Positions 9,034-64,000 of a DNA stretch of 64,000 nucleotides are shown piece by piece. The notes under the pieces were generated by a model. It saw nothing but the letters and a program-made list of their open reading frames with translations. It was not told the DNA's origin and made no database searches. Source of the stretch: an uncultured archaeon. Lineage in GTDB: Archaea > Aenigmatarchaeota > Aenigmatarchaeia > CG10238-14 > SCSR01. Each line of letters begins with the position of its first letter. Within the stretch, counting starts at the first letter, position 1. The position numbers were made by a program, and so were the translations under genes. Location of the stretch: the NCBI GenBank assembly GCA_964372485.1, contig CAYJQI010000001.1:707829-771828 (forward strand). Reading direction: 5' to 3'.

Positions 9034-10020
9034 ATGGGAATGAAATATACTATTGTTGTAAAAAATAACGACAAGAATTGTGGCATAGAAACATTTAGCT
9101 TACTTGATTCTTGCCCAGAGGGATTTTTATGTTCTTTCGATGATTCAAAATTGGTTTTAAGATCAGGTGAATCTGAAAAAATATCATTTATTCTCAATCC
9201 GATTAATCCAAAATCAACAACATCTACTGATCATTCATTCTCGATAACTGTAGAAAATGATATTGATAATGAATATAGTTCTGCCACTACGGATAGTTAC
9301 AGAACTTTTAATAATTTGGTGCAGCCAATAATATTTTTTACGAAAAATTATTCGGTCGATAACCAACTTGTTGATTTTTTTGAATCTAAAATTTTCGAAA
9401 TAAGAAAGTTTTATTTTGATAACAATAATAACAAAACGTTTCAATCTTTACCTCTTTCGATAGTTGAAGGAGATAATCTTAACGAGTTTTATTGGTGCCA
9501 TAATGCCGGTAAATGTGAACTCAATCATCAATTTGAAGGAAACATCATAAACGAGTTGCAAACAAAAGGATACCCTGTTCATCCCGATTGGAATCAATTT
9601 CCTGGAAATAGAGCTGTATGGGTTCTGGCTATAGGTGGGGGAGGATATGCAGGTGGTCGATCTTACCCAACTGGAGGTGGATTTTCTATGGTAGGTGATG
9701 CTGCAATATATGGGACGTTAGATAATAGTTGTGAAAGAGTAAAAGACAAATATTTCTTGACAAACACTCATCCCAATGCCATCGACTACTGCCAAAATAC
9801 ATGGCTACCTAGTGGAAAAATATATGGTTATGCGGTCGGTGCACTTGCACATGAACTAGGACACTCATTTCAGTTAGGTCATCCGGATAGTTATGGATAT
9901 GTGGATGGAAGTGTACAATGGTCTCAAACCGTCTTGGGTGAACACTGGCATTATCCAAATGTTGGACTTTTGGATGAAGATAGAAATATTCTAGCCACAA
10001 ATAAATTTTTTGTAAATTAA
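9034..10020 (+). CDS. Secreted zinc metalloprotease-like protein (HExxH...H)
   Basis: Motif ALAHELGHSFQLGHPD (HExxHxxxxxH). An N-terminal beta-sandwich-like segment is present. The upstream in-frame sequence encodes a hydrophobic anchor. Confidence 0.6.
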   Translation: MGMKYTIVVKNNDKNCGIETFSLLDSCPEGFLCSFDDSKLVLRSGESEKISFILNPINPKSTTSTDHSFSITVENDIDNEYSSATTDSYRTFNNLVQPIIFFTKNYSVDNQLVDFFESKIFEIRKFYFDNNNNKTFQSLPLSIVEGDNLNEFYWCHNAGKCELNHQFEGNIINELQTKGYPVHPDWNQFPGNRAVWVLAIGGGGYAGGRSYPTGGGFSMVGDAAIYGTLDNSCERVKDKYFLTNTHPNAIDYCQNTWLPSGKIYGYAVGALAHELGHSFQLGHPDSYGYVDGSVQWSQTVLGEHWHYPNVGLLDEDRNILATNKFFVN

Positions 10021-10302
10021 CTATTTTTTCTTCAATGCAGGTACTTCAATAACTTTGTTACATTTAGAACAGTTGAATTCAGGTCTGTCGAATTTCTTGC
10101 TAGTTTTACCTGATTTGGTTGTGCCCTTTCCCATAGAGATTGACTTGATTTCATAAAAACTGCAATGAGGGCACACATATTCAACTTCAGCATCTTGATT
10201 TGGTTGTTTACCAATCACCAGATCTGATCTGTTTGTGAAAAATTCTAAATTACTAGGTCTTATTCCAGCTTCCTTCCATTTCTGAATAAGTTTACTCTCC
10301 AT
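10021..10302 (-). CDS. Zinc-ribbon protein, unknown function
   Basis: CPHC...CSKC four-Cys arrangement and a Lys-rich linker. Confidence 0.45.
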   Translation of the reverse strand: MESKLIQKWKEAGIRPSNLEFFTNRSDLVIGKQPNQDAEVEYVCPHCSFYEIKSISMGKGTTKSGKTSKKFDRPEFNCSKCNKVIEVPALKKK

Positions 10303-10306
10303 GAAA

Positions 10307-10480
10307 TCACACTATTGGTTTACGTTTAGCTCTAAGATCATGTGAACCACATTTTCTACATTTAACTTTTCCAGCTCTTACCTTGGCAGAATCTGCCCTT
10401 ATTTTACTTGAACAATTTCTGCAAACAAACACTCTAGTGTATAATCGAGCCATCGCTTCAGGGAAAAGTTTCTTTACCAT
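10307..10480 (-). CDS. rpl40e: Ribosomal protein eL40 (L40e); not in the ORF track because it is only 57 aa
   Basis: My translation of the reverse strand is MVKKLFPEAMARLYTRVFVCRNCSSKIRADSAKVRAGKVKCRKCGSHDLRAKRKPIV. This is the eL40 C4 zinc-ribbon pattern (iCrkC.a.n......kCRkCg...LR.K). Confidence 0.85.
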   Translation of the reverse strand: MVKKLFPEAMARLYTRVFVCRNCSSKIRADSAKVRAGKVKCRKCGSHDLRAKRKPIV

Positions 10481-10538
10481 AACTCTATAATTTAGGTGTT
10501 AGCTTTAAATATTGTTGTTCTTCATTTAGTTTTTAACC

Positions 10539-11120
10539 ATGTTTAAGACTGAAGTGAGAATTCTTGGATTCGATGACTCTCCATTCAAAAGAGAGGATAA
10601 AAAAGTATCCGTTATTGGTGTGATTTATCGTGGGGGAAATTATTTAGATGTTGTTCTAAAGACAGATGTTCAAGTGGATGGATTGGATGCAACGGAAAAA
10701 TTGGTAGAATTGATAAATTCATCCCGACACAAACCACAATTGAAGATTTTGATGTTCGATGGAATAACTTTGGGTGGATTTAATGTTATTGATATAGCAG
10801 ATTTGAATGAAAGAACTGGGTTACCGGTCATTGTTATAAATAGGAAACTTCCTAACATAGATTCTGTGAAAGACGCATTAGAAAAGAATTTCTCTGACTT
10901 TGAAGAACGATGGAAAATGATTTCAAATGCCGGAAAAATAAAAGTTTGTGAACTGAAAGATGAGAAAAAGATTTATTATCAGGTGATTGGAATGGCAGAT
11001 AAAGAAGCAGAAGAGGTAATTAGGCTAAGTTCAACACACAGCAATATACCCGAACCATTGCGAATTGCACACTTGATTGCAGGGGCTCTAGTAAAAGGAG
11101 AGAGTGGTGGAAGAGCATGA
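10539..11120 (+). CDS. DUF99/UPF0215 family protein (endonuclease V-like fold)
   Basis: RILGFDDSPF...VIGVIYRGGNYLDVVL...DGLDAT...LKILMFDGITLGGFNVIDI is characteristic of archaeal DUF99. Confidence 0.7.
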   Translation: MFKTEVRILGFDDSPFKREDKKVSVIGVIYRGGNYLDVVLKTDVQVDGLDATEKLVELINSSRHKPQLKILMFDGITLGGFNVIDIADLNERTGLPVIVINRKLPNIDSVKDALEKNFSDFEERWKMISNAGKIKVCELKDEKKIYYQVIGMADKEAEEVIRLSSTHSNIPEPLRIAHLIAGALVKGESGGRA

Positions 11121-11635
11121 GGATTTTACCAAAATCATTGACTGATACATGGTGGGGAAATATTTTATTGGGATTTGCAGCAGCTGTAATTTTTTATTAT
11201 GTTATACTATCAACATTTCTTTCCAGTAATACACCTGTAGTTGCAGTTGTGAGTGACTCGATGAAACATACAAATCCTGAAGTTACACATTATGGATGGT
11301 TGGAAACGAATTTAGGATATAATCGAACTTATGTTAAATCATGGCCAGTTTCTAAAGGATTCAGTACAGGTGATATGCCGGTAATTAGAGGAAGTGAAAA
11401 TTACAAAGTTGGAGATGTGATTGTGTATTCAGTAGAGGGAATTGGTGCACCGATAATACATCGAATAATAAAAATCAACGAAGACGGTTCATATCAGACT
11501 AAAGGGGATAATAATGATGGACAACTTCCCTACGAAAAAAGTGTAGCGGCTGGCCAGATAAAGGGAAAAGTAATCTTTATAATACCTAAAATTGGTTATT
11601 TTAAGGTACTAATTAACCGGATATTTGGTGTATAA
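11117..11635 (+). CDS. Archaeal/eukaryal-type signal peptidase I (Sec11-like, S26B)
   Basis: N-terminal TM segment, catalytic SDSM box, IHRII (His box) and TKGDNN box. Confidence 0.85.
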   Translation: MRILPKSLTDTWWGNILLGFAAAVIFYYVILSTFLSSNTPVVAVVSDSMKHTNPEVTHYGWLETNLGYNRTYVKSWPVSKGFSTGDMPVIRGSENYKVGDVIVYSVEGIGAPIIHRIIKINEDGSYQTKGDNNDGQLPYEKSVAAGQIKGKVIFIIPKIGYFKVLINRIFGV

Positions 11636-11965
11636 ATGAGATTCTGTGAAAAATGTGGAAATTTACTGATAGTGGAAAAGAAAAGGAAGAATTCTTATCT
11701 AGTGTGCAGAAAGTGCCATCGTGTTTATAAAACGAAAGGTGAAAAATTCAGAATTTCTTCTGCAGTTGGAGAAGGAAAGAAAAAAGTCATTGTAATGACT
11801 GAAAAAGATCAATTTGCTGAACTACCAAAAACCAAGATACTTTGTTCTAAATGTGAGAACATGGAAGCGTATTGGTGGATGCAACAAACAAGATCAGCAG
11901 ACGAGCCACCAACAATGTTTTATAGATGTACTAAATGTGGAAATAGTTGGAGAAGTTATAGCTAA
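11636..11965 (+). CDS. tfs: Transcription factor S (TFS; RpoM/TFIIS-like)
   Basis: N-terminal zinc ribbon CEKCGN...CRKC. C-terminal ribbon CSKC...QTRSADEPPTMFYRCTKCGNSW with the acidic DE hairpin. Confidence 0.92.
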   Translation: MRFCEKCGNLLIVEKKRKNSYLVCRKCHRVYKTKGEKFRISSAVGEGKKKVIVMTEKDQFAELPKTKILCSKCENMEAYWWMQQTRSADEPPTMFYRCTKCGNSWRSYS

Positions 11966-11995
11966 TATTTAAGTTTTTATTTAGAACTAAATCTT

Positions 11996-12289
11996 GTGCC
12001 ATCGTTTAGATATATTCCAAAGAAAGTTTCTGAAGTCAATCCCTCTGATTTGAAAGTAGTGTTAGTTGGGAATGTTATTTCTACAGCAGAGAATTCCATT
12101 GTTCTTGGAGATGAGACGGGAAAGATTGAAATTAGTTCAGATCGCATGATGGGAAAAAATAAACTAATTCGTGTGTTTTGTTCGGTGGTAGAAGAGAAAT
12201 TGAAGGCGGATGTTGTCCAAGATATGGAAGGTCTGGATTTGGATCTATTTAAAAAGATTAATGAGCTATATAGTAAAGCAGGTGTGTAA
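11996..12289 (+). CDS. Small OB-fold-like protein (possible RPA small-subunit analogue)
   Basis: 97 aa with a GTG start. The beta-rich pattern VVLVGNVISTAENSIVLGDETGKIEISSD...IRVFCSVVE is followed by a C-terminal helix. It is translationally coupled to pcn (the stop overlaps the pcn start). Confidence 0.35.
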   Translation: MPSFRYIPKKVSEVNPSDLKVVLVGNVISTAENSIVLGDETGKIEISSDRMMGKNKLIRVFCSVVEEKLKADVVQDMEGLDLDLFKKINELYSKAGV

Positions 12290-13035
12290 TGTTCAACGCA
12301 AAGTTATCTGATCCTAGATTGCTTGTGAATGCAGTCTCAACTATCGGCGAGTTGATTGATGAAGGTGTGTTTAATCTTACTAAGGAGGGAATTTCATTTA
12401 TAGCTGCGGACAGAGCGATGGTTTCTGTTGTGGATTTCAAAATGTCTGCGAGTACGTTTGATGAGTTTAATATTGATACCGATCAAAGAATCGGATTGAA
12501 TATCACAAATCTTTTGTCGGTTTTGAAACGAGTTGGGGTGGATGATAAGATGTTTTTGAGTTTGGAAAATTCCAAATTGGAAATAAGATTGGAAGGTAAA
12601 TCCAAAAGAAAATTTGTTGTGCCATTGCTTGATGTAAGTCAGGAGGAAATACCACCAATTGGCCAATTGGAATTTCCGGCAAGTGTAGAAATCAAACCAC
12701 ATATACTGGAATCTGGAATAGAAGATGCAGATATAATTTCAGATGCTGTTTTGTTTGAAATGATGAAGGATAAATTTATTATTCGAGCTGAAGGGGATGT
12801 GAGTAAAGCTGAATTAGAGATTGAGCGAGGAAATGAAAGTTTGTTGAAATTAGAAACAAGTAGTGAAGTCAAGTCAAGATATCCCATAGAATATTTGAAA
12901 AAAATGGTAAAGGCTGCGAAGATTGCAGATAGTGCAACTTTAAGAGTTGGACAAGATTATCCGATGAAATTAGAATTCAAAGCTGGGGATAAGGCTAGTA
13001 TGTCATTTATCCTCGCACCCCGAGTGGCCGACTAG
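12289..13035 (+). CDS. pcn: DNA polymerase sliding clamp PCNA
   Basis: Full-length similarity to archaeal PCNA (F.A.l.d...l......i..lvde..f....eGi...amD..hvalv...l....F.ey pattern). 248 aa. Confidence 0.93.
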   Translation: MFNAKLSDPRLLVNAVSTIGELIDEGVFNLTKEGISFIAADRAMVSVVDFKMSASTFDEFNIDTDQRIGLNITNLLSVLKRVGVDDKMFLSLENSKLEIRLEGKSKRKFVVPLLDVSQEEIPPIGQLEFPASVEIKPHILESGIEDADIISDAVLFEMMKDKFIIRAEGDVSKAELEIERGNESLLKLETSSEVKSRYPIEYLKKMVKAAKIADSATLRVGQDYPMKLEFKAGDKASMSFILAPRVAD

Positions 13036-15005: not shown

Positions 15006-16253
15006 TTATCGTTTGGATTTTATCTTTTCCCTGATTTTCTCAAGCATGTCTACTCTGCTTTTTATCATCGTATTTTGCTTGTACGTTGATCGGTCTTTAA
15101 CTCTTTGTCGTATTTTTATCAGAACGAATATTAAAGCTGGCACACTAAGTGAAATTAAGACATATTTTATAATATTAAAGGCATTACTATCCACTATAGG
15201 TGTCAATACCGCCAACGGCGTAACTTCCAATGTAGATATTTGCCTTTCTAAAACTTCTTCGGCTGCGGCTGTCATTCGGATTTCGTATATTTTTGGCTCT
15301 GCATCTGTTGGAATTGTTATATTAGCTACAAAAACAACTTTCTGATTAGGCGATACTTCGAGTATTGAAGAGGGTGTAGATTTTTGCCATTCTAGAGGTA
15401 TTCTCTGGATAACAAATTTCAAATCGGTTATCTTCTGATTTCCGACGTTGGTCACTTCCACCGGGAAACTGAAACTTTCTCCTGGCTTCAATGTTATTTT
15501 TTCTGGGGCATCTACTGTCAAGTGGATGAAGGAACTGTTTACAAAAAATTGACTGATTGAAGATACCCAAGTTCTATTAAACACTATGATACTGGCTTGA
15601 ACTGTATACAATCCTTCCTGATCACATGTTTGTAAACTTAGAAGCCGTTCCGAATGTTCTTCCGCAGGCATAAAAATAGTCAGGCTCTGTGTGAGAACTT
15701 TATCTGGACAATTTACAGATACTTGGATTTCTATGTCAGAACCTTTAATGCCCATATTTTCCAAAATTACTTTTGTCGGTAATAGAAGACCAGGACGTAC
15801 CCGTGATGTCAGCGGTTCTACTATTATATCGAATGGGCCAAGAGTGCTTACAGAATTAAAATTAAGCAATGATGTATCGAATAGTTCGAACTTTACTTTA
15901 TCGTAAAGTTTGACTACAATTTCATGCTCTCCTATATCTTGAGGTGTAAATTTAGGCGTAAGAAATAGTCCTTTCTCTTTATCGAGATTAAAAGTAAATT
16001 CTTCATCACTAATAATTTTTCCTTCTTTGATGATTTGCACTTGTAATAAATAACCCCGTGATACATTGCTTGGATTTTCAACGCCAATTGAGAGAGTAAG
16101 ATCTTCCAAAGCAACAGGTTCTTCTGGGGAATATGTTAGATGATATATTTCTCCATTATTATCCGCAAATGCAGGTGATAACATCAACAATAGTGAGAAG
16201 AATAATGGCCAAATAATTTTCATGATTATTCTTTGGGTTTCCATATTATTCAC
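15006..16253 (-). CDS. Secreted, C-terminally anchored surface protein with NEW3/COG1470-like beta-sandwich domains
   Basis: Signal peptide. It has a repeated module of the P.eW.....p..l.v.p.....v...i.iP.da..g.Y.i type (IPLEWQKSTPSSILEVSPNQKVVFVANITIPTDAEPKIYEI). C-terminal TM segment plus a basic tail. Confidence 0.7.
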   Translation of the reverse strand: MNNMETQRIIMKIIWPLFFSLLLMLSPAFADNNGEIYHLTYSPEEPVALEDLTLSIGVENPSNVSRGYLLQVQIIKEGKIISDEEFTFNLDKEKGLFLTPKFTPQDIGEHEIVVKLYDKVKFELFDTSLLNFNSVSTLGPFDIIVEPLTSRVRPGLLLPTKVILENMGIKGSDIEIQVSVNCPDKVLTQSLTIFMPAEEHSERLLSLQTCDQEGLYTVQASIIVFNRTWVSSISQFFVNSSFIHLTVDAPEKITLKPGESFSFPVEVTNVGNQKITDLKFVIQRIPLEWQKSTPSSILEVSPNQKVVFVANITIPTDAEPKIYEIRMTAAAEEVLERQISTLEVTPLAVLTPIVDSNAFNIIKYVLISLSVPALIFVLIKIRQRVKDRSTYKQNTMIKSRVDMLEKIREKIKSKR

Positions 16254-19200
16254 TCTGTTTTATTTTCGATATTACATATCTTAATCTGGCGGCAACTGGC
16301 CTTTCGGTTCTTCTGGATTTGATGAGGTATATAATTCCAATGGCAATTGCTCCTCCGATTATGAATATTACAATGGTGAAGATAATTGACCTTTTACTCA
16401 CATTGAAGACAACTTCCTTTATGTAGAAATCTTCATCCCAATCGATTATCATATCTGCTATATATGATCCTATCACTGCATCATCTGGAACTGCTATTGA
16501 GAACAAAAATTCCTTCTTTTCACCTGGAGATACGTCAGCTGATATAGTTTCTGGAGACATCTTCCATCCGCTCGGTAGTCTTATGGATATTCCCAATTTC
16601 TTAGTTTCACTGCCTGTATTTTCAACCACTATCTTTCCTATTGTGCTCCTACCTTCCTTCAATGACGGAATTGTGAACTCTACTAATTTGAATCCAGTTG
16701 GGAATTTGCTTTCGATTATACTGAGTTCTCTAATTGGGAAATAAATATATGGTGTAAACTCATCGAGTATTTTATTGACGGAATAAGATAATGATCTGGA
16801 ACTTCCTACAACAAGATCTTCTATTGACCATTCGACTATAGGATCATCTTGGATAATTTGATCTGGATATGGTGCAAATTCAATTTCTTTAACACTCTGC
16901 GCAAGAATTTTTGGAACTTCTTCAGTTACTTCAATAAGTGATCTATTGATATCAGTTGGGTTAGATACTATTAATTCAACAGTAGTTTTGTTTGTGGTAT
17001 AGTCCAAACTAATTTCACGAGTAACAATTGGTCTATCTCCTAATTGTTCAACATTTTTGATTCTAAGCATGAAAAATACTGAAGCTTCAGCAACTGAATT
17101 TTTAACATTTATGAATACACTTCTATCTCCAATTTGTGTATTTTCAGGGACCGTGATGCTTATGGTAAATCCTCCTGTACTTCCTGGACTTAGATCTAAA
17201 CTGTCTGGAGTTACGAATATCCATTCCTTTGGAATGCCTGTTACATCTACTTTTAGATCAGTTAAAGTTTCTGATAAAATATTCTTTACTATAATACCTT
17301 CCACAACACTATTGCCTGATTGCACTCCTTTCAATATAGGGAATTTGACAAATTCAATTCCTTTTGATGGTAGTTTAGTAATTGGAGTATCCGGAACTGA
17401 AGATACTGAACCGGGTGATGATGAAGGACTTGGAGACGGGGACGGTGAAGGGGATGGCGATGGACTTGGAGATGGTGTTCCTATTGATACAACTTTATCT
17501 ACTAAATCCGAAAATGAGAAGGCTTGTGATATTATTCTTGTTATAGCTACAAATCTAGCAGCCAATTCATTGAGAGAAAATGCATTTCTAATTTGTATTG
17601 TCAAACTTTGAATTCTTGTTGGAATGTCTGTAAGTTCAATAGCATTAGTTGTTAGTCTAACACGAGTGAAAATATTTGTTATATTATCTAATATGCTCAA
17701 AGCTTGAGTTATCGCTCGGGAAAATACTTGAGATAAACTATTTATTGCTTTTTCTGATAGAAAGATTGGGTTTGTTGTTGTCCTAGGAATGGTTGAGAAT
17801 CTGCTAACTATTTCTTCCAAGTTAATTGCGCTAATAAATGAACGGGTGAATAATAGTAAACGAGTGAATGAGTCCGTAAGATCTATGGCGTTTGTAATAG
17901 ATCTCATTCTTATCATAAGAGCTTGTACATTGTCTGATATATCCAACGCTTGTAATATTACACTAGAAATCACGTGAGATGCAATGCTACGTACTTGTTC
18001 TGTTAAATCGATTGCGGTGGTAATAGATCTTGGAATTAATGAGAATCTACTCACAGCATCTGTTAGGTCGATTGCATTAGTAAAGCTCCTTATAAGTAAT
18101 TGTAATCTTGATGTAGTTTCTGCAAAATTTATTGCATTAGTTACCAATCTCATTCTTGATATAAGAACATTTATATTATCTGTGAGATCGAATGAATTTA
18201 TTATAGTTCTAGGTATTATTCTAATTCTTTCTACAAGTTCTGTTAAATCCATTCCGTTAGTGAAATTCCTAGTAAGTTTTAACATTCTTGTAAAAGTATC
18301 ATTTACATCAATCGCATTAATAAGTAATCTTGCACGAGAAACAAGATTTTGAAGATTATCGGACATATTGAATGCTTGAGTTACAGATTGGAAGAATGTT
18401 TGTTCTGTACCAGAAGATGTTCTATCAAATAATGTAATTCCGTTGGTGAAGAACCTAATTAATGACTGCATACGGCTAAGTGTTTCAGTAAAGTCAATGG
18501 AATTGATAATAAACCTTACCCGTAGAATAAGATTTTGAAAGTTATCTGTGATGTCTAAATTTTGAATTGTCTGTCTTAATCGAGTTAGTGAGGAATTTAA
18601 GTTATCTGTGATGTCAAGTGAAATAGTAACTCTTTTAATTAATGACTGTATTCTACTAAATGTCTCGGTTAGATCTATTGCATTTGTAATGAATCTTGCA
18701 CGTGTGAAGAGATTTGCTATTGTATCTGTTATGTCAAGAGATTGTGTGGTCTGCTTCATCCTAATTACAAATGCTTGAAATGTGTCATTGAGATCTATTG
18801 CATTAGTAAAGTTTCTAAAGAGTAATAATGTTCTCGGGAACACATCGGAAATATCTATTGAATTCACAATAAACATTGTTCGGGTGGATAGATTGCGAAC
18901 CGAGTCCGTAAGATCTATGGCGTTTGTAATAGATCTCATTCTTATAATAAATTTCTGTATTGTATCTGTGAGATCGAACGATTGGGTGATTAGTCTAACT
19001 CGTGTTAATATACTTCCCATTGTATCTGTGATGTCAAGTGATTGTGTTATTTGGCGCAGTCTGATTAACGGAGATGTGATTAATTCGGTGAGATCGAATG
19101 AATTAATGAATGAGCGCGTAAACGAAGCCGTCCGTGCAAAATTCTCTGTTAGGTCAATCGGTAATGTTACAAATTGGGTAATTAGAGGAAGTGTTATCTC

Positions 19201-20628
19201 TGTCTCTAGTCTATCGTTTAGACCTATTGATTGAGTAAACAGACGGGTGAGGGATTGTAATCTGCTTATAGATTCTGTGAGATCTATTTCATTTGTAATG
19301 AATCTTGCACGTGTGAAGAGATTGCGTATATTATCTGATATATCCAACGCTTGCAGTATAGTTTTGGGTAATGTCCTGAACATATCTGACATATCGGTTA
19401 AATCCAATGATTGGGTGAAGAAACGCTTGAGGGATTGTAAAAGACTGTAAGAATCTGACAAGTCGATTGATTGGGTGATTAGTCTAACTCGTGTTAGTAT
19501 ACTGCTTATAGATTCTGTGAGATCTATGGATTGTAAAGTCTGTATTATTCTGGTAAATGGCGGTGATTTGGATTCAGTCAGATCTAGAGATTGGATGAAG
19601 AAACGGATAAGAGATTGTAATCGGCCTAAGGTTTCGGTAAGATCGGTTGATTGAATTAAAAGTCTTACCCTTGTAAGGAATGTTGATATGCTATCAGTCA
19701 GATCCAAGGACTGGGTAAAGAATTTTACCAAAGAATTTTGAAATCCTCGGATTGCTGTTAATGTCAATGAATTTGTCAATTGTATGCCAGAAAATTGGAT
19801 TTTCGGCGAGTTTCCTGTGAAGAGAAACGCTTCTAATATGTCAACGTTAGTTGTTTGTATTGATGGTGTGATTGTGACAGAGACGTTTGCATTGCCAGTG
19901 AATGTAATAGATTGTCCAAGTCTTTGAAAGAGATTTAAAATTTTAATTACATTATCTGTCAATGATATCGATTGTCTAATTTCAACCGGAGACCAGTTTA
20001 CTGTAAGATTTATCCAATCTACGCCACATCCTTCAGAACCTTCTTGATTAACTCCCATGACTAAGATTGTCACATTTTTTGTATGACCAACATATTTAAC
20101 TACTTCTGAATTTGTAGTAATGTTAAATCTCTCGGTTGTTTCAGTTGTAAGTGGTTGAGTTGTACTAATATTTACCCAACTATTGCCTGTCGTATTTGCA
20201 AGATAAGTTGTACAAACTTCACCCGCATCATTTGTGCTGGCACCCTTGACTTCAACATATACAGTCATCCAATTGATAGTGCTTGCAGATTCATTTATTG
20301 TGAAATTGAAACGCATCCAAGGATCATCATTGGTAGCAGTTGAATTTGCCCAGCACCATACATCGTTAGAAGTTGCCAGATATCTATAACACATAGCACT
20401 ACCATTAGAACCAACCCATCCTTCTGTAAATGCAGGTGGTGGAGAAATGTCAGTGGTATTGAAAGTAAACACATTTTTCTTTGTCGAAGGATTCATTCCG
20501 CTGGAATTGCTAAAGTTATAATAAGTCTCGTATATTACTGCTGCTTCAACTTCTACAGAAATTAAAGTAAGTATAGCGATGAATGCCAATAATATGATTA
20601 ATTTTTTCATTTTATCAACCTTAGCCAT
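16246..20628 (-). CDS. Giant (1460 aa) secreted surface protein with five parts: an N-terminal beta-rich module, about 41 tandem 20-residue repeats, a (Pro-Ser)n linker, NEW3-like domains and a C-terminal TM anchor
   Basis: Signal peptide MKKLIILLAFIAILTLISVEVEA and many NxS/T sequons. The repeat consensus is about [SA][IL]D[LI]T[DE]xxxxxxRxRxI[TI][NQ]. The linker is PSPSPSPSPSPSPSPSSSP. Two P.[GE]W modules are present, and the C-terminal helix is IIFTIVIFIIGGAIAIGIIYLI. Confidence 0.85.
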   Translation of the reverse strand: MAKVDKMKKLIILLAFIAILTLISVEVEAAVIYETYYNFSNSSGMNPSTKKNVFTFNTTDISPPPAFTEGWVGSNGSAMCYRYLATSNDVWCWANSTATNDDPWMRFNFTINESASTINWMTVYVEVKGASTNDAGEVCTTYLANTTGNSWVNISTTQPLTTETTERFNITTNSEVVKYVGHTKNVTILVMGVNQEGSEGCGVDWINLTVNWSPVEIRQSISLTDNVIKILNLFQRLGQSITFTGNANVSVTITPSIQTTNVDILEAFLFTGNSPKIQFSGIQLTNSLTLTAIRGFQNSLVKFFTQSLDLTDSISTFLTRVRLLIQSTDLTETLGRLQSLIRFFIQSLDLTESKSPPFTRIIQTLQSIDLTESISSILTRVRLITQSIDLSDSYSLLQSLKRFFTQSLDLTDMSDMFRTLPKTILQALDISDNIRNLFTRARFITNEIDLTESISRLQSLTRLFTQSIGLNDRLETEITLPLITQFVTLPIDLTENFARTASFTRSFINSFDLTELITSPLIRLRQITQSLDITDTMGSILTRVRLITQSFDLTDTIQKFIIRMRSITNAIDLTDSVRNLSTRTMFIVNSIDISDVFPRTLLLFRNFTNAIDLNDTFQAFVIRMKQTTQSLDITDTIANLFTRARFITNAIDLTETFSRIQSLIKRVTISLDITDNLNSSLTRLRQTIQNLDITDNFQNLILRVRFIINSIDFTETLSRMQSLIRFFTNGITLFDRTSSGTEQTFFQSVTQAFNMSDNLQNLVSRARLLINAIDVNDTFTRMLKLTRNFTNGMDLTELVERIRIIPRTIINSFDLTDNINVLISRMRLVTNAINFAETTSRLQLLIRSFTNAIDLTDAVSRFSLIPRSITTAIDLTEQVRSIASHVISSVILQALDISDNVQALMIRMRSITNAIDLTDSFTRLLLFTRSFISAINLEEIVSRFSTIPRTTTNPIFLSEKAINSLSQVFSRAITQALSILDNITNIFTRVRLTTNAIELTDIPTRIQSLTIQIRNAFSLNELAARFVAITRIISQAFSFSDLVDKVVSIGTPSPSPSPSPSPSPSPSPSSSPGSVSSVPDTPITKLPSKGIEFVKFPILKGVQSGNSVVEGIIVKNILSETLTDLKVDVTGIPKEWIFVTPDSLDLSPGSTGGFTISITVPENTQIGDRSVFINVKNSVAEASVFFMLRIKNVEQLGDRPIVTREISLDYTTNKTTVELIVSNPTDINRSLIEVTEEVPKILAQSVKEIEFAPYPDQIIQDDPIVEWSIEDLVVGSSRSLSYSVNKILDEFTPYIYFPIRELSIIESKFPTGFKLVEFTIPSLKEGRSTIGKIVVENTGSETKKLGISIRLPSGWKMSPETISADVSPGEKKEFLFSIAVPDDAVIGSYIADMIIDWDEDFYIKEVVFNVSKRSIIFTIVIFIIGGAIAIGIIYLIKSRRTERPVAARLRYVISKIKQSE
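17488..19977 (-). repeat. Coding tandem repeat array, 60-nt (20-codon) period, about 41 diverged copies
   Basis: Protein residues ~218-1047 can be cut into consecutive 20-mers. Examples are SLDLTDSISTFLTRVRLLIQ, STDLTETLGRLQSLIRFFIQ and SIDLTESISSILTRVRLITQ. A few units are 24-30 aa. Confidence 0.8.
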
Positions 20629-54887: not shown

Positions 54888-56045
54888 ATGCGGGAACACC
54901 TGAAATTGTTTTCTTTGGGTGGATTATTAATAATTCTGGCTACAGTTGTTTTGGCAGCCTCATTATCTAATTCGCCTTCAGCATGTAGCGGTCAGTGGAC
55001 AAATTGTTCAAATGCATTCGGTGATAATTCCAACAGGGCAACTGCTTCTGTAACAGCATCCGCAAATAAGAGTGGTATATGGAATAATTATGGATTTTCT
55101 GTAGCAGATAGCGCATCGATAGACCAAGTTGTTATAAGGGCTGATTTCTTTGCAAGCAAAACAAATGGTTATATTAATGTTAGAGTTAGTGGAGATGGTG
55201 GTGCAACTTTCGGTCCATCTCATGTGGTTGGTGGAAATACAGCTGAACAAACTTTCAACATAGATGTGACCAATGACTTGGCATGGACATCATCTAAACT
55301 TAACAATTCAAACCTTCGAGTGAATGTAACTTGTTTCAAGCAGGGAAGTGGAAGCAATCCAACATGCAATCTAGATTGGCTACCAATAAATGTTACTTAT
55401 ACGTCATTTGATTTTTCAGTTTCTGCAAGTCCAAGCAGCGATACCATTGTGCAAGGTGAAAGTGCAGAATCTAACATAACAGTTACTTTACTTGGTGGGG
55501 TTTCTCAAAATGTAGCACTTTCGGTAGAAGGATGTCCTACTAATGCAATATGTAATCTCAATCCTTCATCTGGATCTCCAACTTACACATCTGTATTTAC
55601 AGTTATTACAAATGCATCGACACCTTTAGGAACGCATTTAATTAATGTTTCCGGAACTGGAGATGGTCTTACAAGAAAAACTAGTTTTACATTAACTATT
55701 AATGAAGATTGCACAAGAGCCAATCCAACAGTTTTAATATCACCAGATACACAGGATGCATCAGCTGGTTCACAATTAAACTACACTACTGAAGTGACAA
55801 ATAATGACTCAAACGGTTGTGGATCTTCAGTATTCAGTTTGACAAGAACTATTCCATCGGGATGGACGGGAACATTTCTCTCCAATTCATTAACAATAAG
55901 TCCAGGTAGCTCTGCGTCAACTACATTCATGTTAACATCTTTATCAAATTCAACAGCAGGAGATTACAACTTCAACAACACAGCAACTAATTCAAACTCA
56001 TCTTCATTCAAGTCAAGTGATTCGGCTGTATATCACGTAAATTAA
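54888..56045 (+). CDS. Secreted Ser/Thr/Asn-rich surface protein with beta-sandwich modules
   Basis: It has a signal peptide and many NxS/T sequons. Its N-terminal module ends CNLDWLPINVTY, like the N-module of the giant protein (CGVDWINLTVNW). Confidence 0.6.
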   Translation: MREHLKLFSLGGLLIILATVVLAASLSNSPSACSGQWTNCSNAFGDNSNRATASVTASANKSGIWNNYGFSVADSASIDQVVIRADFFASKTNGYINVRVSGDGGATFGPSHVVGGNTAEQTFNIDVTNDLAWTSSKLNNSNLRVNVTCFKQGSGSNPTCNLDWLPINVTYTSFDFSVSASPSSDTIVQGESAESNITVTLLGGVSQNVALSVEGCPTNAICNLNPSSGSPTYTSVFTVITNASTPLGTHLINVSGTGDGLTRKTSFTLTINEDCTRANPTVLISPDTQDASAGSQLNYTTEVTNNDSNGCGSSVFSLTRTIPSGWTGTFLSNSLTISPGSSASTTFMLTSLSNSTAGDYNFNNTATNSNSSSFKSSDSAVYHVN

Positions 56046-59006: not shown

Positions 59007-59429
59007 ATGGACAAGAAAGAAACAATCACAGTTCAGACAGTAGTTAATGCTCCTGTAGAAAAAGTTTGGGAATTTTGGACTAATCCCGAGCATATTACTA
59101 AATGGAACAATGCATCGGATGACTGGCACACACCATGGGCAGAAAATGATCTGAGAGTAAGTGGGAAATTTACTTGTCGAATGGAAGCGAAAGATGGTAG
59201 TTCTGGTTTTGACTTTTCAGGTGTATATGATGAAGTAAAAGAAAATGAAGTAATTGCTTACACCATGGACGATGATAGAAAAGTAAAAGTTACTTTCACA
59301 AAGAACAATGATAATGAAACCGAGATAGTGGAAACCTTTGAAGCCGAAGGCACTAATCCTATTGAAATGCAACGTAGCGGATGGCAAGCTATTTTGGACA
59401 ATTTTAAAAAATATGTTGAAGCGAGTTAG
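59007..59429 (+). CDS. SRPBCC-superfamily protein (AHSA1/Aha1-like START fold)
   Basis: The sequence VNAPVEKVWEFWTNPEHITKWN...GKFTCRMEAKDGSSGFDFSGVYDEV is typical for this family. Confidence 0.75.
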   Translation: MDKKETITVQTVVNAPVEKVWEFWTNPEHITKWNNASDDWHTPWAENDLRVSGKFTCRMEAKDGSSGFDFSGVYDEVKENEVIAYTMDDDRKVKVTFTKNNDNETEIVETFEAEGTNPIEMQRSGWQAILDNFKKYVEAS

Positions 59430-59716
59430 CTCTTGGCCATCATGTATAATTCTCTAACCATTCGTTCGATAGTTTGCAATCGTTGATTTATCGCATCATA
59501 CTCCACTTTCATACTATCAACCTGACTTAACATCAGATCTATTTTAGATTTCAAATTGTTAGTTGCAACATCAGATGGTTGGAACTGAGAAGGTGGTATA
59601 TCAGATGGTGGAAGAGGGGGTAATTGATCTTGTACTGGCTCTCTTGATTTTCCTCGACCAAAAATAATTTTGAATGGAAATATGATTATTTTTCCAACTG
59701 TTCCTAAAACTCCCAT
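59426..59716 (-). CDS. Small protein with three parts: a hydrophobic N-terminus, a Pro-rich linker and a C-terminal coiled coil
   Basis: The N-terminus is MGVLGTVGKIIIFPFKIIFG and the linker is PPLPPSDIPPSQFQPSD. A heptad-like LKSKIDLMLSQVDSMKVEYDAINQRLQTIERMVRELY follows. Confidence 0.45.
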   Translation of the reverse strand: MGVLGTVGKIIIFPFKIIFGRGKSREPVQDQLPPLPPSDIPPSQFQPSDVATNNLKSKIDLMLSQVDSMKVEYDAINQRLQTIERMVRELYMMAKS

Positions 59717-59717
59717 T

Positions 59718-60239
59718 TTATGCCCCCTTTAACACAATCTCAGGTGCTATACCCAAAGTCCTTTCGAGTGCACGTTTGAGATCGTTAATTTTTATTCGAC
59801 ACTCTTCCATATAATTTCGTCTTATGTCGTTATAAAGAGTTCTGAAATACAGCCATCTTAATGATTTGTATAAAGCGCTTCTTTGAATGAATGTATTTTC
59901 GGCTGATCTCGTTTGCACTTTTCCTCGTAGGAGTATTGTTACATCACCGTCTTTGTTGGGATCTGCATATTGTTTACCTTCAACTATGATTTCCGGATAA
60001 AGAACTGTCCACATGTCATAAGTTTTCTTGGTGATGAACTTGAAAAAGAACCATCTCGGATCAGATGTATTATCCCAGCGGAAATCACGTTCCCAAACAT
60101 CTTTTCCACGAACATCAAATATTGCTCTTAGAAATCCGCCCATTGCGCCATATATTTTGAATGGATTTGGACCATGATATTCGATTTTTAACTGTCTATC
60201 AGGTGTTAGGCAGTCGTCTTCTAAAATCCATGTTGGCAT
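59718..60239 (-). CDS. Uncharacterised protein, paralogue 1 of a tandem pair
   Basis: It aligns with the next ORF at EYHGPNP/EYTGPNP, ERDFRWD/EREFKWE, LRGKVQT/FEGKIRT and YMEECR/YVEECR. Confidence 0.5.
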   Translation of the reverse strand: MPTWILEDDCLTPDRQLKIEYHGPNPFKIYGAMGGFLRAIFDVRGKDVWERDFRWDNTSDPRWFFFKFITKKTYDMWTVLYPEIIVEGKQYADPNKDGDVTILLRGKVQTRSAENTFIQRSALYKSLRWLYFRTLYNDIRRNYMEECRIKINDLKRALERTLGIAPEIVLKGA

Positions 60240-60243
60240 TCAA

Positions 60244-60771
60244 TCACATCTTTGGGATTATGTTGAAGAAAGTTCTCATTTCATCTGAAAACTGTAACAA
60301 AAGTGCACGGCATTCTTCAACGTACTTTTTTCTAATACCTTGATATATCATTTTGTGGTAGAAAGTCCTTATCATTTCGTAAGGAAGACTTCTCTGCCAT
60401 ACCGTATCTTGAGGGTATTCTGTTCTTATTTTTCCTTCGAACGATATTCTCACAGATCCTTCTTTTCCAAATTCCTGACTAGGCTTGGCATTGCCATCAA
60501 TAGTTATTGTTATATCCTGGAATGTGTGTGTATCGAGATCTTTGATAGTTTCGAATCTAACATGGAAGCTTTCCCCACCAGCCACCTTTTCCCATTTAAA
60601 CTCCCTTTCCTGAATTTCCTTTTCTGTTATGTTAAAAAGAGAACCGAACAATTTACGTATTTGTTCATATGCAAGCTGAGGATTTGGTCCAGTATACTCC
60701 AAAGTCGCCCCAGGCCTTGGAACCAGACAATAGTCATGAATTAGAATTCTTGATCTTGCAAATACTGGCAA
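60244..60771 (-). CDS. Uncharacterised protein, paralogue 2 of a tandem pair
   Basis: See paralogue 1. The two genes are separated by 4 nt. Confidence 0.5.
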   Translation of the reverse strand: MPVFARSRILIHDYCLVPRPGATLEYTGPNPQLAYEQIRKLFGSLFNITEKEIQEREFKWEKVAGGESFHVRFETIKDLDTHTFQDITITIDGNAKPSQEFGKEGSVRISFEGKIRTEYPQDTVWQRSLPYEMIRTFYHKMIYQGIRKKYVEECRALLLQFSDEMRTFFNIIPKM

Positions 60772-60823
60772 ATAATCACTATATTTATTATGGTCATTTA
60801 AAACTAAAAGTTATAGTATAATT

Positions 60824-60991
60824 ATGGTAGTAGGTCGGTTAGTGGGTTGGTTACTGATTTTGGTTGGTTTGTTCTTTATTATAGCAATGCCGTCGATGAG
60901 GAACTATATGCCCGATAAATTCCAGCATACGGTCATTTGGGTGGGAGTTGTTATTCTGGGTATAGGCATTTTTGTTCTAGTTAAAAGTTAA
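60824..60991 (+). CDS. Small (55 aa) two-helix membrane protein, not in the ORF track
   Basis: My translation is MVVGRLVGWLLILVGLFFIIAMPSMRNYMPDKFQHTVIWVGVVILGIGIFVLVKS. It lies 25 nt upstream of the 586-aa ORF on the same strand. Confidence 0.4.
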   Translation: MVVGRLVGWLLILVGLFFIIAMPSMRNYMPDKFQHTVIWVGVVILGIGIFVLVKS

Positions 60992-61016
60992 TGAGAATAA
61001 AAAACCATATTAGATT

Positions 61017-62777
61017 ATGTCCGATGTTATTACAAAGGCTATTTTTAATGATAATCCGGGAATGGGATTGAATGCAAATCCTTTCGAAGGTGAGATGTAC
61101 ATAGATATGACCTCACCGATGGGGCAATTATCAGGAATGTATCTTGGATTGATGTTTTCTTTGCGTAGATTTGGTTTTGAAACTTTGAAGATCGATGAAT
61201 CAATAGATGTTTCTCCCGTTTTCAAACAATATTACGATCTTACTATACAACAGAAGCAAAGCCTTGAAGCACAAATTAAAGGAGGACTTGGCCAGATTGC
61301 AAATGCAATTCATGATTACGAATTGATACGACATGATCTTAGGAAATATAAAGAGTATTTGGATTATTTCACGAGAATCGAGCAAGGGAAGAACCTTTTG
61401 AAAAAAGCCAAAAAAGATGATGAAAAGGAAGAAGCACAAAAAATGATAACTGAAGGTGTACAGACTCTTCGTTCTGTTTTTATAGATCAAGTCGATGCAC
61501 ACACTGGTGAAGGAATTGCATTAAGAACAATAACCTCAAGATGGCCAACGATAATTGTTGATTTTCAGAGATTGGATGAGAATGAAACTGATCAGAAAAA
61601 AATTGCAGAGAAACATAAAATTTCAGAAGCCGAAGCATCTATCCTTGCAACGAAAAATAAACTCTTTATTGAATGGAGGGATAATCTTTTCCGACCTACT
61701 TTAAAGGAGCGATATGAAAATGTTCTTCGATTGGTTGAAGCGAGAAAAACATCTGTCCAGAGATATACCGACATGCTTAAACCTACTATCGCACGGTATA
61801 AACTGATCAACGACGCATTAGAAAGTCCAGAAGGAAGACAATGGGGTCATACGGGATTCTTCCAACCCAGTGCTCAAGCATTTTCAAACGATCTTATACG
61901 AATTTGGGCATTCATGCCCTTTGCACCTGCAGAGAAATATAAATTCACTTTGGATTATATGAATCAAATTTCTTTAGAAAAAGCCGGATTCTTAAAATCG
62001 GAGATTAAAGAATTGGAAAAATTTGGTGTTAAACCGAAAGATCTAGTATATGCATTGCCTGCTGAACCATCTATTGATAAAATTGTAAGAGATGCTATAC
62101 CGGAAGTTCAAAAAACATACAAAGTTCAAATAACAATCAAAGATGTATATGATGCGAGAAAAAGGTTAACTAATTTATTTGGAAAAACAGCTTCTGAAAG
62201 ACAGGGTGCAGAAGGTGGAATAAGACCGGGAGCATCGTGGGTGTTCAGTCCTTATTGGATTTTCCTTGACATTCCAGTAAATCGAAGTGTAATAAGACTT
62301 GCAAATGGAACTGAAATGGAGGATCTATTCATACAAAATCTAACAGTCAAAAACAGAACACAGAATGTAATAATTGTAACTTTATTAGAAGTTATTGCAA
62401 GAGAAAAACAATTGGAAAATTATATCAGCCGACTTTTAGGTGAACTGGGTGGAGATCCGCAGGCACTGAAAACTATTGAGGAAATGTCAAAAGAAGAATA
62501 TCCAGAATTTTTTGGCGGTGAGAGGAAAGAGGAGAAGAAAGAGAAGGAGAGAAAAAGTTTATTGAAAGATTTATCGAAAACTGGTGCAAACATTGAGAAC
62601 TTTTTGAGAAATACATTTGGTGTTAGTTTTGGTTTCATGAGAGCAGGTGTGCCGTATGAGTTTGCAATGGATGATAGAATTGCAGAAATGTTTCAAGTGG
62701 AAACAATGGTCCAAGGTTATCTTTATGTTTTAAGATATTTGCAACAAGGTATGGGCGTTCCGGGGATAAGGGTATAA
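61017..62777 (+). CDS. Uncharacterised 586-aa protein, helix/coiled-coil-rich, with no recognisable motif
   Basis: It is a long uninterrupted ORF with coding-like composition. It has no P-loop, signal peptide or TM segment. Confidence 0.55.
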   Translation: MSDVITKAIFNDNPGMGLNANPFEGEMYIDMTSPMGQLSGMYLGLMFSLRRFGFETLKIDESIDVSPVFKQYYDLTIQQKQSLEAQIKGGLGQIANAIHDYELIRHDLRKYKEYLDYFTRIEQGKNLLKKAKKDDEKEEAQKMITEGVQTLRSVFIDQVDAHTGEGIALRTITSRWPTIIVDFQRLDENETDQKKIAEKHKISEAEASILATKNKLFIEWRDNLFRPTLKERYENVLRLVEARKTSVQRYTDMLKPTIARYKLINDALESPEGRQWGHTGFFQPSAQAFSNDLIRIWAFMPFAPAEKYKFTLDYMNQISLEKAGFLKSEIKELEKFGVKPKDLVYALPAEPSIDKIVRDAIPEVQKTYKVQITIKDVYDARKRLTNLFGKTASERQGAEGGIRPGASWVFSPYWIFLDIPVNRSVIRLANGTEMEDLFIQNLTVKNRTQNVIIVTLLEVIAREKQLENYISRLLGELGGDPQALKTIEEMSKEEYPEFFGGERKEEKKEKERKSLLKDLSKTGANIENFLRNTFGVSFGFMRAGVPYEFAMDDRIAEMFQVETMVQGYLYVLRYLQQGMGVPGIRV

Positions 62778-62778
62778 T

Positions 62779-64000
62779 ATGACATATAACATTGCAGTTA
62801 CAAGTGGTCTTTATAGTATTGCACGTGGTCGTGAATTGGCAGGTATCAAAGCGAAAATTTCTCAAGTACTAACACAAGGTGTAAATAGTATCCAAGTTGA
62901 TTTGGATAGTGTATCAGAATTAACCGAGCCAGAGATTGAAACAGTTATTAAAAGATTCGTAGATGATTTGGGAATCAAATGGGTCATGCATGCTGAAATA
63001 ATAGAAGAAACTGCAATGGAAACTGCAATTCTCACAAATTGGAGACATTCACATAGAAGATTGCATATGTATCTCGACACTTTTTACGAAAAGTTTGTAA
63101 AAAGGGGGTTGAAAAATTATTTACCGGAGTATGTTGATTTCCACATTTCCATAATGATGACAATGGGGTATTTTGGAGAACGCTATAGAATAGCAGGTCT
63201 TCCAATGGTAAGTTTTGATGGTGAATATGATTGGATGAAAATTTTAAATAATAACAGTGATTTGAAAGATTGGTTTAGAAATCATATGGTTCTATTAGTT
63301 ATTGGGAGAGAAGCACCAATAGTTGCAACTCCAGACGAATTGAGAGAAAGAGCAGGTAGATCTGTTATTGAGAAGAAATTGGAAAAAATTGAAAATGAAA
63401 ATCCTGAAGAATATAGAAGAAAAATTAACGAATTCATTGAAAAGAACAGACATCAACCGCAAACTGTTGATGATTTTGTAAGTATTTTTGGTGAGAGCAT
63501 AAGACCCACAGATGAAGAAAGAGGTGATGCATTAATAGAACAATGGCTTGAATACAGTTCTCTACGATATACAAAAGGTTCAATAACCGACGAAGAGGTT
63601 GCATATTCAATAGTTGCAAAATATTTGGAACTTAAGAGAGATGATCCAAACGAACCTTTATGGAAACTTTTCTTTGGTGAGAAAACTATCGAACAACTGG
63701 AAGTGGAATGGGGTAAAAAACTTATTGATCTACAAACGAAGGAAATTTATTTACATCCTGATGTTATAGCGATGATTGGATCCAGATATATTATGGGTCA
63801 TTTCGAAGCTGACCCAGGAACATTCTACTTGGGAGAAAGTTACAAGGTAAATCCAGAAAGATCTAAAGACACATTCTTCAAGAAAAAGGCAATAGACAAA
63901 TTAAAAGAATTGAAATTAGTTTTAGTTTTTGAAAACCCGGAAGCTGCACCAGGCTCGGAAGGACTTAGAAGAATATTTCGAGCAAAACAAATGTATAATT
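62779..64000 (+). CDS. Uncharacterised protein (at least 407 aa) running off the window; not in the ORF track
   Basis: The ATG lies 1 nt after the preceding stop. I read no stop through 64000 in this frame (MTYNIAVTSGLYSIARGRELAGIK...LVLVFENPEAAPGSEGLRRIFRAKQMYN). WVMHAE, DFHIS and VFENPE loosely recall a xylose-isomerase-like TIM barrel. That resemblance is a weak guess. Confidence 0.5.
   Translation, partial: MTYNIAVTSGLYSIARGRELAGIKAKISQVLTQGVNSIQVDLDSVSELTEPEIETVIKRFVDDLGIKWVMHAEIIEETAMETAILTNWRHSHRRLHMYLDTFYEKFVKRGLKNYLPEYVDFHISIMMTMGYFGERYRIAGLPMVSFDGEYDWMKILNNNSDLKDWFRNHMVLLVIGREAPIVATPDELRERAGRSVIEKKLEKIENENPEEYRRKINEFIEKNRHQPQTVDDFVSIFGESIRPTDEERGDALIEQWLEYSSLRYTKGSITDEEVAYSIVAKYLELKRDDPNEPLWKLFFGEKTIEQLEVEWGKKLIDLQTKEIYLHPDVIAMIGSRYIMGHFEADPGTFYLGESYKVNPERSKDTFFKKKAIDKLKELKLVLVFENPEAAPGSEGLRRIFRAKQMYN

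Follow-up and report, generated by a model that had tools for sequence, protein, structure and literature searches.

Comparative analysis of a 64,000-nucleotide stretch of contig CAYJQI010000001.1 from an uncultured archaeon of the Aenigmatarchaeota (the whole stretch is referred to here as the window) revealed that six adjoining genes at its 3' end, designated g1 to g6 in the order of their coordinates (59426-64000), are a real, tightly linked module occurring across the Aenigmatarchaeota and partly in other DPANN archaea. The module is among the best-conserved functionally unassigned families of the Aenigmatarchaeota and as a system matches no known kind; g6 alone among the six genes is from a recognisable superfamily, in split-barrel form. 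With a chance that we place slightly below even, the module encodes a membrane-tethered multi-protein enzyme complex in which g6 would act as a metal-dependent phosphoesterase, with nucleotidyltransferases encoded downstream of g6 in the same pathway.

DPANN archaea are widespread, ultra-small, and mostly host-dependent, and at least one third of their genes are functionally unassigned. The module provides an entry point in the form of a probable metal-dependent phosphoesterase with a split barrel, an obligate partner of apparently new architecture, and membrane tethers. Surveys have counted DPANN lineage-specific families without describing them (PMC8204110), including an Aenigmarchaeota-specific family set, 'Module 128', described as 'completely lacking functional predictions' (Castelle et al., 2021; PMC8204110). 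The families reported here are of the same kind, being lineage-specific and having no functional prediction, and may or may not belong to Module 128; in contrast to the present analysis, that study describes neither a gene cluster nor a fold or function, and the present module has a core that reaches beyond the Aenigmatarchaeota. A literature search found no account of this cluster, of a split barrel resembling endonuclease IV (Endo IV), or of the g5 and g2/g3 families, and the papers on Candidatus (Ca.) Nanohalococcus occultus made no mention of these genes.

Gene linkage across DPANN archaea

Linkage was analyzed in 80 fetched related loci, both by tblastn and by unbiased clustering of all open reading frames (ORFs). 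The tblastn searches identified g2 and g3 in 75 loci each, g6 in 73, and g1 in 51, while clustering recovered g5 in 78 loci, g2/g3 in 73 (two copies each), g6 in 67, g4 in 54, g1 in 53, and a pair of nucleotidyltransferase genes in 52, with the relative position and orientation of the module genes constant across the clustered loci. The flanking genes in the window are CTP synthase (pyrG) and an Obg-like GTPase, confirming the housekeeping surroundings recognized in a first-pass annotation made from the sequence alone; pyrG was near the module in only 9-13 of the 80 loci and the GTPase in 41-45, such that the module linkage stood above background synteny. The co-occurrence of the module genes across genomes decisively disposed of the possibility, named in the same annotation, that the genes would not be found together elsewhere. 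More than 373 relatives of g5 were identified, with a full-length identity of 42-65% among the best 120 listed and of 31-65% across the Aenigmatarchaeota loci. The g5 relatives carrying a name were all Candidatus Aenigmatarchaeota, a DPANN phylum, and this also applied to the named ones in 145 species-representative genomes (one genome per species).

The two tightly packed divergent operons proposed for the window were borne out by the gene spacings and by the gene order in the relatives. All six predicted ORFs were present at the coordinates originally assigned to them; they are far beyond chance ORFs and every one has a conserved family. The minus strand carries g3 (60244-60771; 175 amino acids (aa) from a TTG start; ORF list and relatives), its paralogue g2 (59718-60239; 173 aa; ORF list and BLASTP), and g1 (59426-59716; 96 aa; ORF list and family consensus). 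The plus strand carries g4 (60824-60991; 55 aa with two transmembrane helices; ORF list and a family of 54), g5 (61017-62777; 586 aa; ORF list and relatives), and g6 (62779-64000), an ORF open for 407 codons that comprises the first 407 of 601 aa and is interrupted by the window end. Gene spacings reported as 1-25 nucleotides (nt) measured 1, 4, 25, and 1 nt. The 245-nt divergent region had to be revised, as the true spacer, an AT-rich divergent control region read from the sequence between g3 and g4, spans 52 nt (60772-60823), and 245 nt is the g3-to-g5 distance including g4. The cluster was also larger than six genes cut off by the window end, with g6 extending to 601 aa in full and followed by a nucleotidyltransferase gene. 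The extension of the contig proposed for the last gene was obtained as 2.4 kb of the window organism's sequence past the window end, running through g6 and giving the full 601-aa protein (P0121).

The linkage between the 586-aa protein and the last gene was upheld in that the g6 ATG lies 1 nt past the g5 stop and the median g5-g6 gap was 1 nt over 67 loci. Median gaps were 4 nt for both g3-g2 and g2-g1 and 4-nt overlaps were frequent; such gaps are typical of co-translated subunits.

Distant g6 relatives were found in an unclassified 'DPANN group archaeon', in Nanohaloarchaea metagenome-assembled genomes, and in the cultivated Ca. Nanohalococcus occultus. In the unclassified DPANN archaeon (locus L088), a pair of same-strand genes related to g2/g3 (hhalign E=1.6e-32 and 1.2e-11) immediately preceded the g6 relative and a g5 relative was divergent on the opposite strand (hhalign E=1.4e-26), and a g2/g3 pair also preceded g6 on the same strand at locus L095. 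The Ca. Nanohalococcus occultus locus (L087) displayed the order g5 relative (E=3.3e-10), g6 relative (10001-12406; SVXNc_0669/WP_414836361), and nucleotidyltransferase, the latter an orthologue with 28% identity over 398 aa (E=2e-43). Among 29 further loci from metagenomes, g5 was directly upstream of g6 in approximately 17 of the 22 with enough upstream sequence, and a nucleotidyltransferase followed g6 in a Nanohaloarchaeota-like group of these loci. This survival of the linkage through rearrangement in other lineages was the strongest evidence obtained that the module families work together. Ca. Nanohalococcus occultus grows in co-culture with Haloferax and, because it contains the module core, the function of the module is experimentally testable.

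The gene facing away from g5 in the Nanohaloarchaeota-like loci codes for a protein with a transmembrane helix at its N-terminus and a coiled coil, a likeness to g1 in design only. Divergent from the g5 relative in L108-L117 are genes for a transmembrane and coiled-coil protein of ~150 aa, a membrane protein of ~250 aa, a ~320-aa protein with a MoxR-type AAA+ motif, and a ~285-aa protein with a DUF58-type motif, both motifs being recognized by eye. The MoxR and DUF58 genes were not present in the Aenigmatarchaeota loci and were treated as a neighboring operon rather than a part of the module. Genes for eRF1 and an NYN-domain nuclease were located within a few kb of the module in both L087 and L088, together with a TatD DNase in L087; these neighbors may represent residual synteny or a functional link to nucleic-acid metabolism.

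The module is neither a prophage nor a known defense system. The argument against a prophage, originally made from the housekeeping context, was strengthened by the absence of significant PHROG matches for the six window proteins and of g5 or g3 relatives among IMG/VR viral contigs, by a uniform base composition (GC content), and by the fixed phylum-wide chromosomal position, seen in 145 species-representative genomes. Searches with PADLOC defense models gave 0 matches for all six proteins.

Protein families of the module

The g6 family, delimited by searching 1.84 billion representative proteins exhaustively with a profile, was compact and comprised only 206 clusters. The window g6 had no Pfam or NCBIfam match, and Pfam AP_endonuc_2 (PF01261) was matched by nine of 32 g6 relatives, mostly distant ones (best E=6.8e-10), with P0339 reaching 31.4 bits, just over the gathering cut-off of 31.1, while P0342 scored 30.0 bits. 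These relatives were joined to g6 by full-length profile matches (E<=1e-16), and membership of g6 in PF01261 would therefore hold by transitivity and not directly. The N-terminal half of g6 relatives corresponded to PF01261 positions 6-102 and the C-terminal half to positions 110-230 with coiled-coil-type Pfam matches in between, which fits a barrel interrupted by an inserted helical region. This insertion is ~250 aa in g6, largely helical, and located between the strands of H122 and E385; it reaches ~500 aa in relatives (proteins of at least 800 aa), and a C-terminal extension of ~100 aa is also conserved.

The nine zinc ligands of Escherichia coli Endo IV (Nfo) are H69, H109, E145, D179, H182, H216, D229, H231, and E261. 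In hhalign comparisons of low statistical significance but exact positional agreement, they aligned on g6 H71, H122, E385, D426, H429, H459, H467, H469, and E502, of which eight are identical and H467 stands at the D229 position. The eight ligand-aligned residues were invariant or near-invariant across the broad and divergent family. From these sequence comparisons, we conclude that g6 is a predicted xylose-isomerase-like TIM barrel with an Endo IV-type metal-ligand set, consistent with a multinuclear-metal enzyme of the Endo IV group type.

The likeness to Nfo and PF01261 consists of the matches of distant g6 relatives to PF01261, one of them above the gathering cut-off, and of the Nfo ligands falling on conserved g6 residues. 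In contrast, Nfo is a compact single barrel of ~285 aa that works alone, whereas g6 has 601 aa with the insertion and the C-terminal extension, an obligate partner gene (g5), a histidine or variable residue at the D229 position, and no match to any NCBIfam Nfo model. An assignment of g6 as an Nfo orthologue was rejected, since neither a compact domain nor a match to a curated model was found, although g6 may act in a similar way. The UniRef label 'Portal protein' on the Ca. Nanohalococcus occultus relative was supported by none of the searches, and the label 'sugar phosphate isomerase/epimerase' on one DPANN relative reflects its AP_endonuc_2 match.

The genes 3' of g6 are, as identified by profile matches, Pol-beta-superfamily nucleotidyltransferases. 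Two paralogous same-strand genes of ~283 and ~400 aa followed g6 in 52 of 78 loci, with the nucleotidyltransferase start less than 120 nt past g6 in 35 of the 52 (usually 28-80 nt). In the window organism, the gene after g6 is such a nucleotidyltransferase, known as an 84-aa fragment at the contig end (L005). The family displayed Pfam NTP_transf_2 matches and a G-S...D-x-D core in which G57-S58 and D69/D71 are invariant, and its profile matched kanamycin nucleotidyltransferase in the Protein Data Bank (PDB) with E=8.7e-11 over the ~60-residue catalytic core only. The downstream genes share the NTP_transf_2 core with kanamycin nucleotidyltransferase and Pol-beta; they differ in that ~60 residues align and the other 200-330 residues are family-specific. 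Their scores also did not reach the threshold of any named NCBIfam subfamily, the archaeal CCA-adding enzyme among them. The initial view that the cluster held no recognizable families therefore did not stand, as g6 was placed in the xylose-isomerase-like superfamily and the genes after it are of Pol-beta type. The accompanying statement that none of the products has a P-loop was correct, with no Walker A motif in any of the six, and Pfam and NCBIfam scans of these six proteins likewise yielded no significant match.

The g5 protein had empty Pfam and PDB sequence searches, even via very divergent relatives. Its AlphaFold2 model (predicted local distance difference test (pLDDT) 74.6; predicted template modeling score 0.65) displayed a beta-sheet body with helices of 60-65 residues (residues 70-130 and 204-269) and a disordered Lys/Glu-rich segment (481-555) followed by a conserved C-terminal helix. 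Foldseek searches with this model gave no match in the PDB (best E=0.11, template modeling (TM) scores <=0.16, generic coiled coils) and nothing usable among the BFVD viral structures (best E=0.014). Residues invariant across DPANN include H106-D107-x-R109 and F155/V159/D160, which suggests, from conservation, a functional site beyond a structural coiled coil. A PHA01746 Pfam match in eight of 33 members (best E=3.5e-4) covered the long helix only, was gone among divergent relatives, and was dismissed as helical-composition noise. The idea that g5 is a g3-like domain split by helical insertions, based on a similar order of strands and helices, was also rejected with an hhalign probability of 0.2%.

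The two tandem paralogues g2 and g3 were confirmed as such by BLASTP with 30% identity over 166 aa (E=1e-28). A total of 181 g3 relatives with identities of up to 86% were found, and the TTG start of g3 was confirmed by the invariant N-terminal MPxFAR among the relatives. No Pfam, NCBIfam, PHROG, or PADLOC match was identified for g2, and the g3 family profile had no match among PDB sequences. In the g3 AlphaFold2 model (pLDDT 82.8), an antiparallel sheet is accompanied by a single short helix and by a C-terminal helix of 46 residues (129-174). Its Foldseek matches in the PDB were weak, with TM scores of about 0.3 for Cyt1Aa, volvatoxin, and YwmB and of about 0.2 for Bet v1/START. The Cyt toxin/volvatoxin matches had a Foldseek probability of 1.0, TM scores of 0.30-0.35, and root mean square deviations (RMSD) of 7-9 Å, and PYL, PR-10, Lam, and Ups1 were also among the neighbors. 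The resemblance to Cyt toxins, volvatoxin A2, and Bet v1/START proteins lies in an antiparallel sheet packed by helices and a long C-terminal helix; the differences are the TM scores of 0.17-0.35, RMSD values of 7-18 Å, no sequence or profile similarity, and a modeled g3 C-terminal helix that is much longer and points away from the sheet. A Cyt toxin/volvatoxin fold was therefore rejected as a resemblance only, given TM scores below the criterion of ~0.5, and a divergent SRPBCC identity was rejected on the grounds of no Pfam match, an hhalign probability of 0.03% against the AHSA1/SRPBCC-family protein encoded next to g1, and TM scores of about 0.2. Thus the Foldseek check on the g5 and g3 models, proposed along with the statement that no product carried a nameable motif, yielded no confident structural assignment to known families. 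Even should the function prove mundane, promising candidates for novel folds are present in g5 and in g2/g3.

The membrane features of the module reside in g4 and g1, and no hydrophobic segment of transmembrane length was found outside g4 and the g1 N-terminus in the six window proteins. The proposed two-helix membrane protein g4 was corroborated by two hydrophobic 19-residue windows, and hence two transmembrane helices, in all 54 family members; the family also shares a conserved loop 'FP...YQPE', with the gap to g5 held at ~25 nt. The g1 protein comprises a short N-terminal aromatic and polybasic motif, a variable linker rich in prolines, and a C-terminal amphipathic helix that is strongly conserved, with a consensus of 'Mg.f..ffkkKk ... 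KaKidL..tqidslk.qyEalneri.nIErMv.EIY.mAKs' over 53 members, a fixed position ~1.7 kb upstream of g5, and faint coiled-coil matches only in Pfam. The hydrophobic head ascribed to g1 was retained as regards its hydrophobic and aromatic character and abandoned as a membrane-spanning helix, since 46 of 53 relatives have no hydrophobic stretch of transmembrane length. The motif arrangement indicates that g1 is likely a peripheral membrane tether and not a transmembrane protein. The window copies of g1 and g4 contain no cysteine.

The g3-g4 spacer was 43-70 nt in the window's clade. Conserved in the relatives were a 'CTAAAAAG(T/A)T(A/T)TA'-like motif, ~15-25 nt ahead of the first gene on the plus strand, and 'ATCACT', which abutted the g3 start (AGTGAT on the minus strand); these motifs would fit an archaeal BRE/TATA promoter element and a Shine-Dalgarno sequence, respectively. 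In L037, L041, L046, L048, and about 20 other loci, from more distant Aenigmatarchaeota, a second small hydrophobic ORF of ~48 aa was situated just upstream of g4, giving two tandem small membrane proteins and lengthening the g3-g4 spacer to 160-250 nt.

Possible functions of the module

The analysis showed which gene families make up the module and that they are linked, together with the predicted fold class and the ligand pattern of g6, the membrane features, and the identity of the nucleotidyltransferases. The enzyme complex proposed here builds on these findings, its physical assembly, activity, and substrate being inferred. All subunits would form one complex at the cytoplasmic face of the membrane, with g6 as the putative catalytic center whose multinuclear metal site most probably hydrolyzes a phosphoester bond, and with the two Pol-beta-type nucleotidyltransferases working alongside it. 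As the obligate partner of g6, g5 would probably pack its long helices against the helical insertion of the g6 barrel, and g2 and g3 would constitute a probable heterodimeric adaptor or ligand-binding module. The complex would be held at the membrane by the two transmembrane helices of g4 and by the membrane-targeting motif, flexible linker, and docking helix of g1. The preferred guess for the substrate is nucleic-acid ends, on which a 3'-end cleaning phosphoesterase would be combined with nucleotide addition, and such end processing would serve repair or the processing of acquired DNA or RNA. Known enzymes carrying the Endo IV ligands cleave the DNA backbone or tidy 3' ends, and nucleotide addition to hydroxyl groups is the reaction of Pol-beta-type enzymes; for these reasons nucleic-acid end processing is, by analogy, the favored candidate for the module chemistry.

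Several observations weigh against this proposal. The hhalign comparison of g6 with E. coli Nfo was weak (E=0.014 and 0.24, with a single-sequence template), H467 is conserved in the window's clade only and variable in the wider family, and the g6 family profiles, including a barrel-only alignment with the insertion removed, had no meaningful match among PDB sequences. Four distant loci (L089, L100, L102, and L103) contain g6 without detectable g5 or g2/g3 neighbors, and the g2/g3 pair was not detected beside g5-g6 in the Nanohaloarchaeota-like loci. Membrane anchoring and a START/Cyt-like pair are a poor fit to DNA-repair enzymes, and no RNA-seq runs with the window sequence were found.

An alternative that we regard as unlikely is a lipid-handling machine in which g2/g3 bind lipids and extract or deliver them, g6 cleaves head-group phosphodiesters, and the nucleotidyltransferases re-activate them, allowing a DPANN cell unable to make its own lipids to remodel those obtained from its host. 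Such a role would be consistent with membrane- or lipid-binding folds as the best structural neighbors of the g3 model (Cyt1Aa/volvatoxin at Foldseek probability 1.0, and PYL, PR-10, START, Lam, and Ups1), with two proteins dedicated to membrane association (g1 and g4), and with the confinement of the module to DPANN lineages, which are generally without lipid synthesis. However, the g3 TM scores were only 0.17-0.35, neither sequences nor profiles linked g2/g3 to SRPBCC proteins, the adjoining AHSA1/SRPBCC gene product among them, the nucleotidyltransferases resemble Pol-beta and kanamycin-type enzymes and not cytidylyltransferases, and no barrel of the AP_endonuc_2 type is known to us to act on lipids. 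A further alternative is a structural membrane-associated scaffold or remodeling assembly, in which long helices contributed by g1, g2/g3, g5, and the insertion of g6 would form a coiled-coil lattice and the enzyme site would be secondary. A long helix does occur in every soluble component (g3 129-174; g5 70-130 and 204-269; coiled-coil matches in the g6 insertion) and g1 is built like a membrane tether. This assembly is nevertheless considered quite unlikely, as the invariance of the g6 His/Asp/Glu set across very divergent relatives argues for catalysis, the invariant polar motifs of g5 and its identity of 42-65% among the best 120 relatives and 31-65% across the Aenigmatarchaeota loci are atypical of coiled-coil scaffolds, and no similarity to ESCRT-III/PspA, SPFH/flotillin, BAR, or dynamin was found for g5 and g1 in Pfam or for g5 in Foldseek searches. 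The membrane-associated scaffold or remodeling machine suggested in the first-pass annotation thus survived as regards membrane association, indicated by the two transmembrane helices of g4 and the membrane-targeting motif of g1, and gave way as a pure scaffold to an enzyme complex because of the invariant metal ligands of g6.

A similarly low probability attaches to the module being two functionally unrelated operons, g3-g2-g1 and g4-g5-g6-nucleotidyltransferases, kept together by synteny in small and slowly rearranging genomes. Other neighbors are indeed partly syntenic, such as the Obg-like GTPase in 41-45 of 80 loci and the recurring GatD/GatE and TFIIB genes, and the missing g2/g3 pair in the Nanohaloarchaeota-like loci also favors this explanation. 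Against it, in the rearranged loci L088 and L095 g2/g3 relatives are once more found beside the g6 relative and share its strand, and the g2/g3-g5 linkage (73-75 of 80 loci) is far above that of the flanking housekeeping genes. It is very improbable that the module is a peptide- or protein-modifying system in which g6 acts like the multinuclear iron TIM-barrel oxidases of the DUF692/MbnB type, g5 presents the substrate, and g1 or g4 is the substrate. DUF692/MbnB-type oxidases use the same ligand positions, and a TIM barrel carrying multinuclear metal ligands, with an obligate partner and small conserved proteins alongside, would suit such a system, but the Pfam scans of 58 g6 family members gave AP_endonuc_2 matches and none to DUF692, the window g1 and g4 have no cysteine, and g5 is unlike known partner proteins.

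A broader and rather doubtful proposal is that the module would be a previously undescribed, lineage-defining machine shared by Aenigmatarchaeota, Nanohaloarchaeota, and further related DPANN archaea, combining the novel architectures of g5 and g2/g3, an Endo IV-like metal enzyme with a coiled-coil arm inserted in its barrel, and dedicated nucleotidyltransferases in a membrane-tethered assembly for processing host macromolecules (nucleic acids or lipids). If host nucleic acids or lipids were indeed handled, this would bear on how symbionts survive with reduced biosynthesis.

Neighboring genes and minor features

Adjoining g1 in convergent orientation, positions 59007-59429 (+) encode a 140-aa AHSA1/SRPBCC-family protein (Pfam E=2.4e-23). 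It was rejected as a module member since it was missing at this position in 80 of 80 related loci and displayed no profile similarity to g2/g3. Two antisense ORFs, at 61592-61810 (-) within g5 and 60340-60744 (+) within g3, recurred in 69 and 30 loci, respectively; they were rejected as extra genes, as this recurrence is explained by the strong conservation of g5 and g3 on the opposite strands. Elsewhere in the window, a very large ORF of 1460 aa was located at 16246-20628 (-), and positions 54888-56045 (+) encode a probable secreted or surface protein of 385 aa that is rich in Ser, Thr, and Asn, has a hydrophobic segment at its N-terminus, and contains an NPCBM_assoc/NEW3 domain (E=4.7e-7).

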